From Nitrosarchaeum sp. (GTDB lineage Archaea > Thermoproteota > Nitrososphaeria > Nitrososphaerales > Nitrosopumilaceae): a stretch of DNA of 64,000 nt. Position numbers and translations under genes: made by a program. Location of the stretch: positions 416,001 to 480,000 of the forward strand of contig OZ245020.1 in assembly GCA_965223865.1 (NCBI GenBank), in the 5' to 3' direction. The notes under the pieces were generated by a model. That model did no database searches. It was not told the origin of the DNA and worked only from the letters and a program-made list of their open reading frames with translations. Position 1 is the stretch's first letter. The number at the start of each line of letters is the position of its first letter. Shown here in pieces: positions 35,949-44,379 of this stretch.

Positions 35949-35996
35949 AATCCAAGCTATGAATCTTTGTATTTAAATTTCAAAAAAATTTGTAGA

Positions 35997-36009
35997 ACGG
36001 GCTTGGAGG
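35997..36009. repeat. distal att site: 13-bp copy of tRNA-Arg 3' end
   Basis: ACGGGCTTGGAGG, identical to 42904..42916. Confidence 0.85.
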
Positions 36010-36137
36010 TTCTCGCCTTCTCCAGCATTCGAAACCTCTAATTTTATTGATTTTTTCAAGATTTTAAAGTACTATAATCACTATATTTTATAATGTTTTA
36101 GTTATTGCTATGTAAAATAAAAAATAGGATGTCTTTT

Positions 36138-37256
36138 CTATGATTCTGGCAAATTATAGTAGCCACGTATGTTATCGATATCTGTTTGAATCTTACCCTT
36201 TTGTTCTGATGATTCTGTCATGTCTAATGCAATATCAAACTGCTCTTCTGCTTTTTCAAGTGGTGCTTTTTCTATACTATACATGTAAGAGTAAGCTTCA
36301 CCTTGGCACATGTGCGAATTAATTGAATCAAATTTTGAACAATAATTTAATGCTATTTCTGGATGTTTATAAATCGCATTAATTGCTTTTCCAATCCATG
36401 CATTTTCTGTATTGAATTTGCCCTCGTATAGATCTATTGCATTTTGGTATTCCACTTCAGACTCTTCTGAGAAAGACTTTATCTGACCAAAGTTACTTTG
36501 TGCTTGTAAAGAACTTCCCATACCAATAATAGATAACATGTGAAGATACTGCCCTCGTTTCAAATGATCAGAATGCCAATTATTTGTATCAAATATGGTT
36601 TTTGCCTTGACGAATGTTTCATATGATTGAGAATATTGTTTCTCCTCATACTGATGATTACCCATAGAGATCAGATATTCCATATCGTATAATGCATTTG
36701 CACTAGCCCATACAGATACACCAACTATGAGTCCAGCAGATATGAGAGCCACAACAGAACCAATTATTAGATAAGATGCAACAGAAGAACCAAACATAGT
36801 AAATCCTGAGGTAATCTTCCCAGATACTTCTAACAATCCAATACCTGTAGCAATAGATGCAGCAAGTGCAATTGGTACTCTGTGTTGCAATATAGGATTT
36901 CCATAATCAGTATTGTTCTCTAATGCATAAAATGAGGTTGCTATTCTAGTATCATTATAACCAGTAGTAGATATTTCCCAATCTAGTCTATAATTTGGAT
37001 TATTTGGATCTGATGCAGGTGCTACAGATCCACTTATCAGCTTATATTGAATTGATCTTTGTATTCTAAATACATAGTCATATCCTTCTTGCTTTAGATA
37101 TTCTGAATCAAGCTTTTCTTTTTTTCCAGCATATTTTATTCTTGAAAATAATCGTTTTGCTGCGAATGGATCCTGTAAGTTTTCGTATACTGTCTTTTGT
37201 CGTTGTTTGACATCCTTATAAGTACAAGTAATTAAATCAGCACCCAAAACATCCAC
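36138..37256 (-). CDS. membrane protein: soluble N-domain, 2 Gly/Ala-rich TM helices, TPR-like C-terminus
   Basis: Hydrophobic hairpin at about aa 127-185; TPR-like segments (MGNHQYEEKQYSQSYETFVKA, AEEQFDIAL). Confidence 0.7.
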   Translation of the reverse strand: MDVLGADLITCTYKDVKQRQKTVYENLQDPFAAKRLFSRIKYAGKKEKLDSEYLKQEGYDYVFRIQRSIQYKLISGSVAPASDPNNPNYRLDWEISTTGYNDTRIATSFYALENNTDYGNPILQHRVPIALAASIATGIGLLEVSGKITSGFTMFGSSVASYLIIGSVVALISAGLIVGVSVWASANALYDMEYLISMGNHQYEEKQYSQSYETFVKAKTIFDTNNWHSDHLKRGQYLHMLSIIGMGSSLQAQSNFGQIKSFSEESEVEYQNAIDLYEGKFNTENAWIGKAINAIYKHPEIALNYCSKFDSINSHMCQGEAYSYMYSIEKAPLEKAEEQFDIALDMTESSEQKGKIQTDIDNIRGYYNLPES

Positions 37257-37578
37257 CTTTGTTTACTGGTTTTTTCATTAATTTTTGAACAAATTCTCTG
37301 AAGTCAGATAAATAATCATCAAATGCGATAGACATATCGATAAACTTCTTTCCTTCATCTGTAACACAAAAGACAGGTTTTTTATCATCTTCACACCTCT
37401 CAACAAGTTCATGTTTTATTAAAATAGAAGTATCTCTACTAATTGAAGAAGGTAGTCTTCGTAATGAACGAACCATACAATCATTTGTATGAGGTCCTTC
37501 TTCTACTGCGAATAGTACCTCAAATGTAGAATTGTTTAATTGTATCTTTGAATCTGGTATTCTTCTTTTAGAAGTCAT
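37237..37578 (-). CDS. winged-HTH (MarR-like) regulator
   Basis: PSSISRDTSILIKHELVE...FCVTDEGKKF wing signature. Confidence 0.75.
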   Translation of the reverse strand: MTSKRRIPDSKIQLNNSTFEVLFAVEEGPHTNDCMVRSLRRLPSSISRDTSILIKHELVERCEDDKKPVFCVTDEGKKFIDMSIAFDDYLSDFREFVQKLMKKPVNKGGCFGC

Positions 37579-37584
37579 GCATTA

Positions 37585-37628
37585 TTAATCATAAATTCAT
37601 ATAAAACCATTTTTCACATATGTGAAAT
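37585..37628 (-). promoter_or_regulatory. promoter/operator cassette, copy 1
   Basis: 44 bp with minus-strand TTTTATAT about 25 bp before the wHTH ATG and perfect palindrome TTTCACATATGTGAAA. Confidence 0.75.
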
Positions 37629-37688
37629 TTAGAGTAGCGTCACAACATTATAAAAACAATTTTTAAAGAAAAATAATAAGTGATTTTT

Positions 37689-37901
37689 TTACAATTGAGA
37701 TTTTATATTGTGCATTTTAAGCATTAATCCTCCTAATGTCCCACCTAACCCTATAGCCAAATGTGAGAAGATCGCTGATCGTTCATCAGATTCTACTAAT
37801 CCAGCTAGTATTAAAGACATCAAAAATCCACTACCCAATACTACTATGAGCAAATTGGTAAAATCATTATCCATTGTAATTTTGTTCTTTTTAGATTTCA
37901 T
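37689..37901 (-). CDS. 70-aa 2-TM membrane peptide
   Basis: Two Gly-rich hydrophobic helices; lies downstream of promoter copy 2. Confidence 0.6.
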   Translation of the reverse strand: MKSKKNKITMDNDFTNLLIVVLGSGFLMSLILAGLVESDERSAIFSHLAIGLGGTLGGLMLKMHNIKSQL

Positions 37902-37962
37902 CAGTAAGAAAATAAATGTAAAAAAAATTATTTAATATTTTGTAACATATGTGAAAGTTTTG

Positions 37963-38006
37963 TTAATCATAAATTCATATAAAACCATTTTTCACATATG
38001 TGAAAT
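37963..38006 (-). promoter_or_regulatory. promoter/operator cassette, copy 2
   Basis: Identical 44-bp direct repeat of 37585..37628. Confidence 0.75.
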
Positions 38007-38395
38007 CATGCAAATTAATTTGGAGATGTCTTATTTTATTGTTGTATACAATTCTTATCTTGTAAATTCTTCTTAAACTTTCTACGTGATAGTTTTTAGA
38101 ATAAACTATATTCTATGTGTTTTTCTTTTCTTCAAATTTAGAATCATACTCAATAGATGGTCTTAACACATAATGCTTTGGTGACTTTTAGAGACTCTGA
38201 TCTAAGTGGCCGTTCAAGTTTCTATTGCTCTTACTTTCATGACAATATTTTCAACTTCTAGTTGTTGCAAAAATATCAGAAGATAATTGTTGAAGTATTG
38301 ACAAAATATAAAATAATTAATTTTCACTATCTACAAAAAAGGTATTATATTGTCTATATCTTAAATTTTAATCTAACAATATAATTCTAGATAAG

Positions 38396-39322
38396 GTGTA
38401 CGATCAAATCATCAGTATATTTCAAACCAAACCCCATTCTAGTTCAATCACGGCAAAAATAAAATACATTGAAAAAAACTTTAGAAATAAAACCCAAGAA
38501 CTACTTTATCACATAATCAGTATAGTAGAAGAATACGAAGAGATGGGCTACAACCTTACTGTAAGGCAAGTATACTATCAGCTTGTCTCACGTGATATCG
38601 TCCCTAACAATCTTGGTTCATACCAACTTACAAGCCGTGTCCTCAAAGATGCTAGAATGTCAGGACTAGTAGATTGGGATACAATAGAAGACAGGGTACG
38701 GCAGATAATTATGCCAAATGAGTTTGATGATGTAACCGAATTTATCACTGCTGCAATAAACTCATACAGACTACCAAGATGGAAAGACCAAGATCATTAT
38801 GTGGAGGTAATTGTAGAAAAAGAGGCACTTGCCGGAATACTGCGTACATTAACTAGTAGATACCATGTCCTTTTGCTTCCAAACAAGGGATACTCTTCAG
38901 CTAGTGCAATTCATGAGGCAGCTCAGAGATTCATATATCAAACATCAGAGGAAAAACAATGTCACATATTGTATCTTGGTGATCATGACCCAAGTGGGAT
39001 GGATATGGTACGAGACATACAAGACAGACTAGATGAGCTTTTGTGTACGGTATCAGTTGAAAAGATTGCCCTTACAATGGACCAGATAAAACAATACAAT
39101 CCACCTCCAAATCTTGTCAAAAAGTCAGATTCTAGGTCAAAAAAGTATGTCACTGAATATGGGGATAAATCATGGGAGCTAGATGCCTTAAAACCTGAAG
39201 TACTAAATGAATTGGTAGAGTCTAATATCAAAAAGTATCTTGATATGGAAAAATACGATGATATATTATCTCAGGAAAAACGTGAGAAACTGAGACTAGT
39301 TGAACTTTCTAATGCTGTTTGA
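38396..39322 (+). CDS. stand-alone TopoVI-A/Spo11-like protein (Mini-A-like; WH + TOPRIM)
   Basis: LTVRQVYYQLV (catalytic-Tyr helix), VEKEAL (TOPRIM Glu), LGDHDPSG (DxD), WELDAL. Confidence 0.8.
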   Translation: MYDQIISIFQTKPHSSSITAKIKYIEKNFRNKTQELLYHIISIVEEYEEMGYNLTVRQVYYQLVSRDIVPNNLGSYQLTSRVLKDARMSGLVDWDTIEDRVRQIIMPNEFDDVTEFITAAINSYRLPRWKDQDHYVEVIVEKEALAGILRTLTSRYHVLLLPNKGYSSASAIHEAAQRFIYQTSEEKQCHILYLGDHDPSGMDMVRDIQDRLDELLCTVSVEKIALTMDQIKQYNPPPNLVKKSDSRSKKYVTEYGDKSWELDALKPEVLNELVESNIKKYLDMEKYDDILSQEKREKLRLVELSNAV

Positions 39323-39365
39323 GAATAAAATAGATAGTTAGTAGATTCCAAAATCTACCACCCAA

Positions 39366-39478
39366 CCAGTAACGGTTCACCAGTTCAGTTCACCAGAACA
39401 GTTCACAAAAAATGCCATATTCTATGTATTATAATAAAAAGTGTGGGAACTATACCGATGAACTGTGTCCATGAACCG
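39366..39478. repeat. inverted array of 13-bp-phased repeats around an AT-rich spacer
   Basis: GTTCAC at 39375/39388/39401, GAAC at 39447/39460/39473. Confidence 0.7.
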
Positions 39479-40891
39479 GCATAATTGTGATTTTCTTCCC
39501 ATATTCGGGGGCTATAGAGTCCAAGATCTTCTGAATCTTGTCTTGAGTGTCTTCATAGCACCAAACTTCAACTTTGGAGAACCATTTTAGATTCTTTGTC
39601 ATATTTGACTTGACCTGTTCTGGAGGGCTCGTATCTCTTGCGGTGATTCTATCTCTATTGCAACAGCATTTGCCACATCAAAACTCTCATTGTCCAGTAT
39701 TGGTATGGATATTGCATCTGGCTGCTCTATTATGATGTCTTGCTTTAGGACCTCAAAATAGTACGCATGGTCAAGATGGTGTCTTTTTGCCTCCTGAATG
39801 AGGAAAAATGACTCTATTCCCCCCTCACGTTGATTCTCAAGGACTGGATTGAACAGTTTTTCTAGATTGCCTGATAGGTTATGCTCTATTCGGGATGATG
39901 TTTCAGATGGACTAATTGATACTAATCCCATGTTTGCAAGATTTTGCAGTCGGATTTTGACATCAGCCTTGTTGACACCTGACATTCCTGCAATGTCAGA
40001 TAGACTTGGACGGTATGACTTGTTGTCTGTGTCCTGTCGGTTTTTGATTAGATTGTGCATTACTACGCATATTTTGTGATGTTTTGGTTTGTATTCTGCA
40101 AGACTAATAGATGTCATATTTAGAATCTTTTGACTCTTTTGGATGTCAGTTGGACCTGTTGGTTTTTGCCTTTGTTGTTCCTCTTTTATTTTTGCCCTAA
40201 TTGCGGTCTCTTGTGGTATTTGTATGTCCTCAGAAACAGAAGATGATGTCATTGTTTCTGTATTTTCATTGTTATCTATTTTCTCAAATAGCTTTTCTAT
40301 TCTGTCTACAAGTTCGTTGTTGTTTATACGACACATGTCAAGTGTTTCATTACAGTATCTGAATATTCGTGGAATATGCACATCTTCCATCTCCTTTTTT
40401 ACTGTTCTTTGCAGAAATTCACTTACCTTTTTATCCATTTTCAGAGTATCTGTAAATTTTGTCACCATGTCCTGAATAGAGTTTACATCTTGTCTGTGAT
40501 CTTCTCTCATTGATGTAGCTGTCTCTTTGATTGTAGTTACAGCCTGCTCTAGGTGTTCTGTAACTGAAGAAAGATTGTCTGAAAACAGCTCCTCTCCTCG
40601 TTTTGTTCCCCACGAAAATGTTTTCCACGATACTGCTCCGCATATGCCTGCTATTGCAACTGTTAGTACTGTATCTAGAGGCTGCATATCTACAATGACC
40701 TGTTGTACCAAAGGAGATATCACAATACCATTTACTACTGCGATTCCCAGTATTGTGAGAAATCGTACTGCATTCTCCTCAATTCTGATTCTCTGCATCA
40801 TTCCTGACTGGAGGGATCCTCCTATGGCAAATGGCAATCCAACCATACTGACAAGAGACACTATCAAAAGTATCATGTCCAATGGAGGCAT
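39450..40891 (-). CDS. TM + coiled coil + wHTH + PD-(D/E)xK-like protein (frameshift near 39624)
   Basis: 3 N-terminal TM helices; SLSDIAGMSGVNKADVKIRLQNLANMGLV; QPDA...AIEIES; alternate frame continues PEQVKSNMTKNLKWFSKVEVWC to stop at 39450. Confidence 0.65.
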
Positions 40892-41044
40892 TTTTACTGC
40901 TGCACCTCCTTCTGGTCATTCTTCTTCAGAGTTGTATTTTCTATTGTTTTTGTGTGATCTTTTTTCATGCAATATGATAAATGATTTGTATATAAGCGGA
41001 AAATTTTCCAATTTTTGCTTTTATACAAACCACAATACCATATT

Positions 41045-41407
41045 ATGAAAGAAAATTGTTCAAATCAAAAGAAATCACATGCATTATTACTTGCAGAGCT
41101 AGATAGACTGCAAAAAATTACAGGCAATAACCAACAATCTGATCTAGTATGGTCTCCTCAAAGTGATTCGCAGATAGAGGGAAAAGTTGACGAAAACACG
41201 ATTACAATCTATTCTGAAAATATTGCAGATGCAATAGATACATTGCAACACGAGTTTGTTGACTATGTTATTAGTCAAGCAATCAAACCGTATATCAAAC
41301 TAGTAAATTTGTTGATGTCAATAATCACAAAAGATGCATATGAAACAAAAGAAGATGTAGTAGAATCATTGTTAAGATTAATGAATAATGATTCTACAAA
41401 AAATTAG
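41045..41407 (+). CDS. zincin-like small protein (HExxD variant)
   Basis: EGKV..TITIYS...DTLQHEFVD; start moved to ATG 41045. Confidence 0.55.
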   Translation: MKENCSNQKKSHALLLAELDRLQKITGNNQQSDLVWSPQSDSQIEGKVDENTITIYSENIADAIDTLQHEFVDYVISQAIKPYIKLVNLLMSIITKDAYETKEDVVESLLRLMNNDSTKN

Positions 41408-41412
41408 TTGTT

Positions 41413-42863
41413 TCATTTTTGTTTTCTCACAATGACACGATTACGTGTTAATTCCTTTATCGGTTCCCACCCTTGACATATGTAATGTAATAATTGTTCA
41501 CATTTTTTATTATCTTTCCATCGTATTGTTTCTGTTGGATTTCGTTAGTAGATGTTACAGATGATGACATTGTCTTCATTATTTCTTGTCTTATTGCATC
41601 TGTTTCTTGTTCAATGTCAAAAATTATTTCGTTGTCTGTATCATTTGAATTATTAATTTTCTTTCTTTGTCTTTGTTTTTCAATCTTGATCTTTACAGGA
41701 TCAATTCCATATAACTTTGCTTGTTCTCTCCACATGTCAAGTAACATCTCTTTTTTGTTTTGAACAGAATTGCTGTTCTTACTATTTATGGTACACAGAA
41801 ACTGTTGGCTTTTAGAGTATGCACTTCTCATGTCTGAGATCATCTCATCAGTTAACCTTCCTTTGTTTGTAGTGTATCTTGCCTCAATGTCTCCCTTATG
41901 TCCCATAAAGAACTGTCTGTATGCATGAGTCATCTTTCCATGGCTTTCAGCTAATAGTAACTGAGTATCAAAGTATGCACGCAAGACATACGGTCTTGCT
42001 TTAGTTATGCTCCAGATTGCTTTTCTAATATCTGATGTAATTCGTGGTGTTGTGATTAATTCTGTAGATGATTTGAGAGTTTTACTTCCTCTTCTTGATT
42101 GATATCCTTGCTCCAAAGATATTACAGGTGAATTTTTGGTAAGGTTTTCGCCAGATGAGGTTCTTTTTCTCATATAGCCTAGAACATATTCGCATCCTTC
42201 TGCAGGCAAGAATGTAAAGTACTTATTTTTGGTCTTGCTTAGTGATGCTCTCACAGTAATCATTGCAGGTATTTGTGCAAAACTAACTGTTCTACCATCA
42301 TTTTCAATCACTAGATCATTCAAGTCAGCTAATTTGAGACCATCACTTGCGTCATAATTTCCCATTACTTGTGGTCTAATACCTGAAAATGCCATCAAAC
42401 TGATACTAGTTCTGGTTCTAGGATTTGCAACATTGAGGATCGACTGTAATTGTTCTTTGGTAGGTACCTGCTCGTCTTGTATGTTTACTGGTATTCCTGC
42501 ATTTGCAATTCTTATCTTTCTTTTTGGCTCTATGTAGTTGAAGACAAGCCATGATCTTATTGATTTGAGTATTCCATCGATATAGTTTGGTGCATAGTTT
42601 TGTGATTCAAGCCATGACACATGATCAAATAATATGTTCTCAAGCTTGATGATGTCTCTTTTTCCCATTTTTACAAGAAAAGATGGTGTAGTATTTGTCC
42701 TGTAACAAAATAGATTCAATCTGCGTAGTCTAATGTCTGCATTTAGCTTGCTACCTCTACTTGTGTTGTCATACCAGCGTTGTACATTTTTATCTTGCAG
42801 AAGAGCTTTTGTTGCAGATTTCTCCTTTGTTTTAGTAGACATTATTTTTCTCCACAATGTCAT
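41413..42863 (-). CDS. tyrosine recombinase/integrase (C-terminal frameshift near 41500)
   Basis: SGIRP (R), SKTK (K), YVLRAYF (R), FMGHKG (H), ARYT (Y); track ORF stops at 41457 but the alternate frame gives EQLLHYICQGWEPIKELTRNRVIVRKQK*. Confidence 0.9.
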
Positions 42864-42904
42864 ATTTGATTTGCTTAAAAGCAGGTCTCGGATCCTGGAG
42901 TATA

Positions 42905-42998
42905 CGGGCTTGGAGGGCTTCGATCCCTCGACCTGTAACTTAGGAGGCTACCGCGCTATCCATGTTTCGCGTCAAAAATGACTCTGCGCCACAAGCCC
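42905..42998 (-). tRNA. tRNA-Arg(CCT) with non-canonical 19-nt D-loop intron (42965..42983)
   Basis: Acceptor GGGCTTG/CAAGCCC, anticodon arm GTAGC-CTCCTAA-GTTAC, T arm GAGGG/CCCTC; removing the intron restores a 75-nt cloverleaf. Confidence 0.9.
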
Positions 42999-43022
42999 AG
43001 AAAAAAAAATACTTGTAATTAT

Positions 43023-43730
43023 TTAAGCGTAATCAAGGTTGCTTTTGATCATTTCCTGAATTTCTTTCCAATCAGAATTGTCTTTTTGTTCCCATTTTTC
43101 AAAAAATACTACATCTTTAAGATCAAGTCTAGGAAGCCAACCTGCCTTTTCAAGATCTGGTTTTTCTGAAAACTCATCAACATATCCTAAACATAGATAT
43201 GCAATTGGAACAACATGTTCGGGTAGTTCTAAAACATCTCTAAGAATATCATTTGAAAGTATACTTACCCATCCAAGACCAACTCCTTCAGTTCTTGCTG
43301 CAAGCCATAAATTCTGAATTGCACAACAAACACTGTATAATCCAGCTTCTGGAATGCTAGATCTACCAATTACAAAAGGACCAAATTTTGATGGATCATA
43401 TGTTACACAAAGATTGACAGGTGATTCTAAAATTCCCTCAAGTTTGAAGGAAAGATATTTTGATCTTCTTGGTTCTTCGACTAGTTGTGAAGAACGGTTT
43501 TTTTCAATTTCAAAAGACTCTTTGATCTTCTTTTTTGTTAAATTATCTTTTATCAAAATGAAATTCCAAGGTTGAGAAAATCCTACTGAAGGTGCATGAT
43601 GCGCTGCATGTAGAATTTTTGATAAAATCTCATTTTCAATCGGTTTTGAAGTAAAATGGGATCTTACATCTCTTCGAGAATAAATAGCCCTGTAAAGACC
43701 TCTTTTTTCTTCTTCAGTGAATCCTGACAT
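43023..43730 (-). CDS. bluB: 5,6-dimethylbenzimidazole synthase (nitroreductase family)
   Basis: RRDVR, HAPSVGFSQPW, CAIQNLWLAAR, GWVSI, AYLCLGY. Confidence 0.95.
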   Translation of the reverse strand: MSGFTEEEKRGLYRAIYSRRDVRSHFTSKPIENEILSKILHAAHHAPSVGFSQPWNFILIKDNLTKKKIKESFEIEKNRSSQLVEEPRRSKYLSFKLEGILESPVNLCVTYDPSKFGPFVIGRSSIPEAGLYSVCCAIQNLWLAARTEGVGLGWVSILSNDILRDVLELPEHVVPIAYLCLGYVDEFSEKPDLEKAGWLPRLDLKDVVFFEKWEQKDNSDWKEIQEMIKSNLDYA

Positions 43731-43802
43731 TTCTTTAGCCTTTTCTCATTTCATGCTTTTGTTAAACGTTAATAATGTCAGTACCTAGTCTTGTACTTCA
43801 AT

Positions 43803-43876
43803 GGGCCGGTAGTCTAGCTGGTTAGGATACCGCCTCGACACGGCGGTGATCATGAGTTCGAATCTCATTCGGCCCA
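43803..43876 (+). tRNA. tRNA-Val(GAC)
   Basis: GGGCCGG/TCGGCCC acceptor, CCGCC-TCGACAC-GGCGG anticodon arm, ATGAG-TTCGAAT-CTCAT T arm. Confidence 0.93.
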
Positions 43877-43881
43877 CTTTT

Positions 43882-44379
43882 TTAATTTAAACTAGTCTGA
43901 AATTCTTTTTCAATTACACTCCAAGAAGTTTCAGTTGTAATACTTCCTTCAGCCCTAAAACTAGATATCTCATCATTCAACACTGAATCATAAACCTGAG
44001 AATCTACCTTAGACTTTACAAGAACAAATGTATTTTTCAATGGAATCTCTGCTCCTGAATAAAACACTGCTCTACCTGGCATCGAAATATCTTCTGTAGA
44101 ATATTGTCCTGAACCTAACAATTGCCCATCAGCAAATAATTGATAACCAATTACTGGAACAGTAAATGTTTTCTCACTTGGATTCTTTACGAGAAATACA
44201 ACTTCTAACTTTGCAGTATTTTCAATTTTATTCACATCCTTTACTTTAACTTCTCCTAATTTAATTTCCACTTGTTCTAATTCGGTATTATCCAAACTTG
44301 CATAATATACAATTCCTCCCATCATTGCTAGTAGGCCTGCGATAGCGGCGTATACAATCATCTTACTTTGAAGTGCCAA
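43882..44379 (-). CDS. membrane-anchored LEA_2-like protein
   Basis: TM helix then VFLVKNPS..YQLFADGQLLGSG; start moved to TTG 44379. Confidence 0.7.
   Translation of the reverse strand: MALQSKMIVYAAIAGLLAMMGGIVYYASLDNTELEQVEIKLGEVKVKDVNKIENTAKLEVVFLVKNPSEKTFTVPVIGYQLFADGQLLGSGQYSTEDISMPGRAVFYSGAEIPLKNTFVLVKSKVDSQVYDSVLNDEISSFRAEGSITTETSWSVIEKEFQTSLN

Follow-up and report, generated by a model that had tools for sequence, protein, structure and literature searches.

What kind of mobile element occupies a tRNA gene with an integrase, a topoisomerase-like gene and no hallmark of a virus or conjugative element, and which of its genes could maintain it? The question is raised by a stretch of 64,000 nt from Nitrosarchaeum sp. 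(OZ245020.1, positions 416,001-480,000; hereafter the window, from the genome coded G000). In it, 6.9 kb lie between 13-bp direct repeats in a tRNA-Arg gene of this marine ammonia-oxidising archaeon. We consider it likely that this DNA is an integrated, plasmid-like mobile element of the published kind known as thaumarchaeal cryptic integrated elements (CIE), in its mode of integration, its anatomy of backbone and cargo, and its presumed maintenance. The element class itself has already been described; what may be newly delineated here is a conserved four-gene core around a gene for Topo mini-A (Mini-A).

The boundaries are sharp. The 13-mer ACGGGCTTGGAGG has two exact copies in the window, one at 35997-36009 (attL, the distal copy of the attachment core) and one at 42904-42916 (attR, the proximal copy, in the 3' end of the tRNA). 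No third site exists in the window even with one mismatch, the chance expectation is 0.01, and two copies were found in 0 of 100 shuffles. The direct repeat named in the original prediction, an earlier annotation made from these letters, is confirmed exactly and far beyond chance. The target is a tRNA-Arg(CCT) gene on the minus strand (approximately 42904-42998) with an insert of ~20 nt in its D-loop. Because these nucleotides interrupt the D-loop, ARAGORN missed the gene, reporting a tRNA-Val as the only tRNA of the window, and the Rfam tRNA match (42910-42975, minus strand) reached 26.9 bits, under the gathering score (29). From 42998 to 42904, the minus strand provides an acceptor stem, a D-arm with the ~20-nt interruption, an anticodon loop CU-CCU-AA and a T-arm; after in-silico removal of 16-28 nt from the D-loop, ARAGORN returned tRNA-Arg(cct) in 182 of 460 variants. 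The right-hand repeat is therefore formed by the final 12-13 nt of a tRNA-Arg(CCT) that bears an intron, and the 3' end of this tRNA does lie beside the integrase gene, as had been predicted.

Comparison with relatives demonstrates that the DNA between the repeats was inserted. The left and right flanks were queried separately in 41 genomes, G000 included. In seven of them (G003, G002, G005, G022, G018, G008 and G020) the two flanks are separated by no more than ~10-90 bases, and a single tRNA end is adjoined by the start of the left-flank gene or by its promoter-like 'gtatttaaa' stretch; in G006 this motif and the left-flank gene start likewise stand beside the tRNA end. The tRNA gene at these empty sites is the same, and its most variable part is the D-loop insert. 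Among the 11 genomes in which the tRNA locus was read, sequence of the integrase side stands beside the tRNA only in G000 and in its closest relative, G004, whose flanks are 93-94% identical. G004 carries 31.6 kb between the same two 13-mers (G004:C1:1333413-1365045; loci L025 and L026), and the DNA common to this insert and the window element amounts to ~100 bp just inside attL and the block 38452-43925. At least seven relatives thus have an empty site (attB), and the element is not syntenic in all relatives. The empty sites and the different insert of G004 therefore establish a true insertion, and the tRNA-Arg(CCT) site is one that insertions have used repeatedly.

The gene next to the tRNA is a 468-codon open reading frame (ORF) on the minus strand (41457-42863); in the database the gene is called from a start 7 codons further in, for a product of 461 residues. 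Pfam (PF00589) and NCBIfam give the protein no match up to an E value of 1; PHROGs, PADLOC and PDB sequences, the last searched both with the single sequence and with a 22-sequence profile, gave no relevant one. Its AlphaFold2 model has a predicted local distance difference test (pLDDT) score of 72, and all the PDB matches listed by Foldseek for this model are tyrosine recombinases or proteins of that fold. The best is XerA (5hxy, E 2.8e-6), and the others include the Brujita integrase, IntI, Cre, XerH, the Tn1549 integrase and the SroF repressor. R156, K203, R288, H315 and Y323 are invariant in 22 sequences and stand in the expected order, with Y285 in place of the first H; these putative catalytic residues were assigned by pattern and not by residue-level superposition. 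On the predicted fold and the invariant residues we accept the ORF as a divergent tyrosine recombinase, and the integrase call of the original prediction is upheld by the structure model and by no sequence library. The family comprises 2525 database proteins, a few of which are named 'site-specific integrase' by NCBI, and is present in 64 of 251 family genomes (a tally that includes genomes flagged as unpublished: G095, G221 and G243). Standard annotation profiles fail to recognise it, and automated surveys of mobilomes for this reason probably under-count such elements.

The integrase belongs to a backbone that recurs well beyond the window. Counted from the tRNA, this backbone consists of the integrase, an ORF of 130 residues, a gene for a protein of winged helix-turn-helix (wHTH) type with ~483 residues, and Mini-A, and among 28 other loci both order and orientations are kept in every one that reaches far enough. 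It is found in G004, in two further genome records (loci L028 and L031), both at tRNA-Met(CAT), and in 23 metagenome loci (integrase in 18, 130-residue ORF in 20, Mini-A in 20, every miss falling at a contig end). A second element of G000, 195 kb away at tRNA-Arg(TCT), has the same backbone (G000:C1:~650400-654800; locus L027 7300-11830), with proteins 50-80% identical to those of the first. No tRNA-end repeat was found within 17 kb for this second element, nor within the sequence searched for L028 and L031. Five relatives have both copies of the attachment core, and the window element is smaller than all of them: besides G004, these are L033 (11.2 kb) and L043 (8.2 kb), with the same 13-mer, site and flank gene; L032 (7.5 kb), with a 14-bp repeat at tRNA-Met; and L044 (12.2 kb), with an 11-bp repeat at tRNA-Arg(TCT). 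Three tRNA genes, tRNA-Arg(CCT), tRNA-Arg(TCT) and tRNA-Met(CAT), are accordingly used by closely related integrases, and the build is modular, with a conserved backbone and a variable bay between Mini-A and attL. As regards the co-occurrence search suggested for the whole gene set, the four-gene backbone recurs and the three cargo genes of the window are in none of the other backbone loci.

What the bay holds in relatives was read from 40 ORFs, namely 20 of the ~35 of G004 and all 20 of L032, L033, L043 and L044. The matches were to multicopper oxidase, CbtA, DsbD, Kelch, HtrA-like, Rieske, ferritin, GNAT, beta-propeller, KAP NTPase and OLD-family proteins. Copper and metal genes form part of the G004 cargo (multicopper oxidase, CbtA, DsbD, ferric-reductase-like), and a pair of genes for a KAP NTPase and an OLD-family ATPase-Toprim protein adjoins Mini-A. 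One further locus, L029 (8142-17192), has the 483-residue gene and Mini-A beside a different, canonical integrase (PF00589, E 1.1e-13), and the pair therefore moves between integrase types. L029 is inserted beside a ribosomal-protein/SecY/Cbf5 gene cluster and also holds genes for a tetratricopeptide repeat (TPR) protein and an AIPR abortive-infection protein. In metagenome loci L037 (4360-4435) and L039 (5132-5207) a tRNA-Pro(CGG) lies ~450 bp beyond Mini-A; it may be host flank, in which case the element would be ~5 kb of backbone only, or cargo, and no attachment repeat was found there.

The fourth backbone gene (38396-39322, plus strand) encodes 308 residues that had been described as a TopoVI-A-like cleavage domain. 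That domain is real and can be named more precisely. The protein matches phrog_6247 ('DNA topoisomerase') with an E value of 2.2e-96 and Pfam TOP6A-Spo11_Toprim with 5.9e-4 (20.3 bits, below the cut-off of 24.1). Topo mini-A is defined by an RxxY/FY motif, a Toprim glutamate, a DxDxxG motif and an xWELDAL box, the last of which sets it apart from Topo VI and Topo VIII (Takahashi et al., PMC7671362). In an alignment of 17 sequences, R57 and Y61 of the 5Y-CAP motif RQVYY are invariant, as are E141 and D196-H-D198-P-S-G201 (DxDxxG) of the Toprim domain; in SWELDAL (residues 259-265), W260, E261, L262, D263 and L265 are invariant and A264 is nearly so. By its sequence, then, which has all four of the diagnostic motifs, the gene described as TopoVI-A-like encodes a Topo mini-A. 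No match to a GHKL/Bergerat ATPase domain of the B-subunit type was found in the other six ORFs of the element with Pfam and NCBIfam, and searches of PDB sequences with Mini-A alone and as a 17-sequence profile returned nothing relevant. The gene is present in 11 of 251 family genomes, one of which (G243) is flagged as unpublished.

Mini-A homologues also occur in 84 tailed-phage records, at 40-46% identity over ~85-98% of the length. The phages infect Salmonella, Xylella, Flavobacterium and Pseudomonas, and their identity to the archaeal protein is unusually close for a cross-domain pair. Mini-A has been proposed to act as an initiator of rolling-circle-type replication, in the manner of HUH endonucleases, and skuldviruses are reported to carry no other replication gene (Medvedeva et al., 10.1101/2021.07.29.453957); the idea of a replication initiator is repeated in a later study (10.64898/2026.02.13.705702). 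In the tree of the former work the skuldvirus protein groups with thaumarchaeal homologues (10.1101/2021.07.29.453957).

Facing Mini-A is the gene of ~483 residues, which in the window is split in two: its N-terminal 430 residues are encoded at 39599-40891 and its C-terminal 50 residues at 39450-39602, both on the minus strand, the latter part being 80% identical to residues 434-483 of P0121. Relatives of the 430-residue ORF are 472-545 residues long. The gene is split because the window lacks one base near 39625 that three intact relatives have, and no homopolymer run surrounds this position; a Logan contig of run X1, which may be the source sample, spans 39424-40345 with zero differences. 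The family has a hydrophobic N-terminus, a long coiled coil, a wHTH domain (265-352) and a conserved alpha/beta C-terminal domain (357-483 in intact relatives) with invariant E363, D395, E416 and E418. The original prediction of a membrane-anchored wHTH-nuclease therefore stands in its hydrophobic N-terminus and its wHTH domain; the nuclease-like reading of the C-terminal domain comes from one middling structural match, a candidate identity being that of a PD-(D/E)xK nuclease, and the ORF is frameshifted. Foldseek matches of the model to N-terminal-wHTH methyltransferases and to TrmBL2 were weak and judged uninformative. The ESM Atlas returned unnamed clusters and Replic_Relax at 0.87, which we treat as a lead only. 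A family profile found nothing relevant in PDB sequences, and no relative was found in IMG/VR viral contigs. The gene is present in 2 of 251 family genomes, and it is in one frame in all loci examined outside G000. Two ORFs of ~1060 residues (G000:C1:1603573-1603932 and 737053-737421) are weakly similar to its wHTH/C-terminal region, at 28-31% identity with E values of 2e-6 and 3e-5.

The 130-residue backbone ORF (41015-41407, plus strand; possible start ATG 41045) diverges from the integrase and had been taken for a zincin-like protein. It lacks HExxH: a TLQHEF(V/I)D motif is invariant in 22 distinct aligned sequences, and with HEF(V/I)D in 22 of 22 the zincin identity is not supported. Language-model similarities to SprT-like (0.89) and Peptidase_M78 (0.86) proteins are leads only.

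Three cargo genes occupy the bay of the window element, all on the minus strand. The one nearest attL (36138-37256) encodes a 372-residue membrane protein with hydrophobic segments at 127-145 and 152-189 and a conserved, helical C-terminal part. Its earlier description as a transmembrane TPR protein is borne out for the hydrophobic segments and not for the repeats: a TPR_12 match (E 0.038) appears in 2 of 16 family members and is absent from the protein of the window. The family counts 15 relatives besides the protein's own record, and 3 of the 16 members have a fused N-terminal wHTH domain. The next gene (37237-37578) encodes a 113-residue wHTH protein with weak MarR/HVO_A0114 matches (E 0.01-0.05). 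Because the two genes overlap by 20 nt and fused forms exist in relatives, the pair looks like a split fusion and is probably a split wHTH-membrane regulator. The third gene (37689-37901) encodes 70 residues with one long hydrophobic stretch (13-38), for which Pfam, PHROGs, NCBIfam and PADLOC gave no family match. With these three, the element has six accessory genes plus the integrase, one accessory gene fewer than had been counted.

A palindromic site found three times around the small ORFs lies upstream of the 113-residue wHTH gene and of the 70-residue gene. Two copies belong to a 47-nt direct repeat: copy 1 (37582-37628), just upstream of the wHTH gene, contains the perfect palindrome TTTCACATATGTGAAA at 37612-37627, and copy 2 (37960-38006) a perfect 16-nt palindrome at 37990-38005. 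Between them lies a degenerate form with two mismatches (37941-37956). Auto-regulation by the wHTH protein at these putative operator sites can fairly be inferred from this arrangement.

Profile searches bear out the earlier statement that recognisable capsid, casposase and conjugation genes are missing. In the seven proteins of the window, Pfam, PHROGs and NCBIfam detected no capsid, packaging, conjugation (VirB4/VirD4/VirB6-type), Cas1 or standard replicase protein, as far as sequence profiles can reach. Among the 40 cargo ORFs scanned in relatives there was likewise no match to capsid, terminase, portal, conjugation or Cas1 proteins, nor to MCM, primase-polymerase, PolB or rolling-circle Rep. 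A casposon was rejected on the lack of a Cas1 match and on the ends, which are a direct repeat of the tRNA end; an integrative-conjugative element was rejected for want of transfer genes in the seven window proteins and the 40 cargo ORFs. That the gene set fits no recognised element is thus right as far as casposons, integrative-conjugative elements and recognisable proviruses go, and wrong in that it matches the cryptic integrated elements already described. The statement that there is no obvious replicase holds for a standard replicase and is too strong otherwise, because Mini-A has been proposed in print as a replication initiator.

From these parts we propose the following course of events. 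A divergent tyrosine recombinase would have joined a circular element to the 3' end of tRNA-Arg(CCT) through the shared 13-bp core, leaving an intact tRNA at attR and a 13-bp copy at attL, and the same enzyme would catalyse both integration and excision. The backbone is made up of this integrase, the 130-residue ORF, the membrane-anchored wHTH protein with its nuclease-like C-terminal domain, and Mini-A, and the bay here holds the putative split wHTH-membrane regulator with its palindromic operator sites and the small membrane protein. After excision, the backbone would maintain the circle. Replication would be started by Mini-A, through tyrosine and Toprim cleavage, by the wHTH protein, or by both, these being the only candidates. 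A bolder version, which we regard as rather unlikely, makes Mini-A and the membrane-anchored wHTH/nuclease-like protein a hitherto unrecognised two-protein module for replication initiation and anchoring, with the wHTH protein as the long-sought partner of Mini-A. Binding an origin and keeping the circle at the membrane would fall to the wHTH protein and the initiating cut to Mini-A, and the pair, perhaps with the small membrane ORF, would suffice to make a free replicon, ~3.4 kb in size. A single contig of run X7 (depth 8) leads from 41022, through 30 other letters, back to 37658. Such a joint would fit a circle or tandem of ~3.4 kb with the 70-residue ORF, Mini-A and the 483-residue gene, and hints at a free replicon.

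Several observations weigh against an autonomous plasmid-like element as we describe it. A replication role of Mini-A or of the wHTH protein is a proposal, and two findings caution against generalising it for Mini-A: the homologues in the 84 tailed-phage records, and the place of the gene among nucleotide-metabolism genes in two of those phages, with genomes of 56-60 kb. The structure model of the wHTH protein is poor (pLDDT 59.8). Neither the 483-residue gene nor the integrase has a match in the phage collection, and nothing therefore connects the element directly with a known virus or plasmid. Divergent capsid or replication proteins of archaea can escape Pfam, and many cargo ORFs have no match. 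The 483-residue gene is frameshifted in both copies in G000, at different places, and the copy studied here may no longer be autonomous. Because its wHTH/nuclease-like gene is frameshifted, it is probably crippled, to judge from the reading frame; its integrase, Mini-A, 130-residue ORF and both 13-bp cores are intact. The assembled contigs of four runs, in which rare forms are invisible, contain no circle junction (attP), as the original prediction had suggested looking for, and no precise excision. One contig of X1 bridges 35981 to 42904 with 16 other letters, at a depth of 7.7 against ~100-380 for other X1 contigs, and because of these letters and the low depth we read it as a co-occurring relative with an empty site. 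Two joints in run X2 (37207 to 38742; 39988 to 40125), whose sides measure just 21 and 30 letters, were set aside.

These facts also bear on other explanations of the locus. Mini-A and the membrane-anchored wHTH/nuclease-like protein could form a defence or exclusion system, the element then being a small defence island carried by an integrase and not a self-replicating plasmid. The 5Y-CAP/Toprim make-up of Mini-A is common to JetD-type nucleases, and PADLOC gives it a weak JetD match (E 0.0035) over 29 residues around the DxD motif. The defence genes of relatives adjoin the pair (KAP NTPase and OLD-family ATPase-Toprim in G004, AIPR in L029), the pair also travels with the PF00589 integrase of L029, and both copies of the 483-residue gene in G000 are broken, as is possible for costly or toxic genes. 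Nevertheless, PADLOC-DB 2.0 has no convincing match for any of the seven proteins (best E 0.0016-0.0035, over short stretches) and so lends no support to the undescribed defence island that had been raised as an option. Moreover, the pair is in every element of the family seen, as expected of a maintenance module, and Mini-A is common in the genomes of phages themselves. We consider a defence island unlikely.

Decay offers another account: a fixed relic, no longer mobile, would have a gene set without present function for an element. The frameshift in the 483-residue gene, the smallest cargo of the family and the contigs from four runs, with neither a circle junction nor a precise excision in them, all fit this picture. 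Set against it, both cores are perfect, the integrase, Mini-A and the 130-residue ORF are conserved and uninterrupted, the frameshift amounts to one base, and rare excision cannot be seen in contigs. Because other species of the genus have an empty site, the insertion is also not ancient. A relic in this sense seems to us decidedly improbable. Least probable of all is a virus remnant or satellite, for instance of a tailless icosahedral Mini-A virus whose structural genes were lost or are supplied by a helper. Mini-A was first described as virus-associated (PMC7671362), the skuldvirus protein clusters with thaumarchaeal homologues (10.1101/2021.07.29.453957), and the element has no transfer genes of its own. 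Such an origin sits badly, however, with the lack of any capsid, packaging ATPase, portal or terminase match in the seven proteins or the 40 cargo ORFs of relatives, with the absence of the 483-residue family from IMG/VR and of that family and the integrase from the phage collection, and with a cargo in relatives that is metabolic, like that of published cryptic elements. An integrated plasmid-like element thus remains our preferred reading.

To our knowledge, marine ammonia-oxidising archaea have no genetic tools. Krupovic et al. (2019, PMC6563490) singled out small integrated elements of 3-12 kb as the best basis from which to develop shuttle vectors. Toward such vectors, the family described here offers a compact, well-bounded backbone, attachment cores known at three tRNA genes, a bay that accommodates from 2 to 27 kb of cargo and many intact natural variants. 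It is also a clean setting for testing the function of Topo mini-A, which is one of only four conserved genes here.

How does the element compare with systems already known? Thaumarchaeal CIE carry an integrase, lie mostly at the 3' ends of tRNA genes, intron-containing ones included, have attachment sites from 8 bp with a median of 17, and often lack an identifiable replication protein (Krupovic et al. 2019, PMC6563490). The window element has every one of these features, its integrase by predicted fold. It resembles CIE in its tyrosine-recombinase integrase, its intron-bearing tRNA 3'-end target, its 13-bp attachment site, its small size, its wHTH and hypothetical ORFs and its lack of hallmark genes of viruses, conjugation or casposons; its relatives, like CIE, carry multicopper oxidase and other 'auxiliary' cargo. 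Whereas CIE are said to have no signature genes (PMC6563490), this family has a fixed four-gene backbone. The main text of that paper has 'mini-a' 0 times and a single 'topoisomerase', of type IA, and its supplementary element tables may hold members of the family; apart from those tables, we found no description in the literature of this backbone or of any link between Mini-A and the 483-residue protein.

The integrase gene is intact after integration, targets a tRNA gene and encodes a predicted tyrosine-recombinase fold, as in the non-suicidal, pNOB8-type archaeal integrases and integrative plasmids (PMC8371274). It differs from these in an attachment core of 13 bp, compared with 40-60 bp (PMC8371274), and in having no PF00589 or NCBIfam match. 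Mini-A, for its part, has in common with viral and mobile-element Topo mini-A a length of ~300 residues, the 5Y-CAP and Toprim domains and the same motifs (PMC7671362; 10.1101/2021.07.29.453957). Like known Mini-A it has no B subunit nearby and stands on a mobile element, where it would be the sole replication candidate, as in skuldviruses (10.1101/2021.07.29.453957). Unlike viral Mini-A, it resides in a non-viral integrated element, and unlike the gene of bacteriophages, which lies among nucleotide-metabolism genes, it invariably has as its tail-to-tail neighbour a membrane-anchored wHTH protein, for which neither the phage collection nor IMG/VR gave a match. The element is therefore not unclassifiable: it is an added member of the described CIE kind and at most represents a newly delineated family within it.

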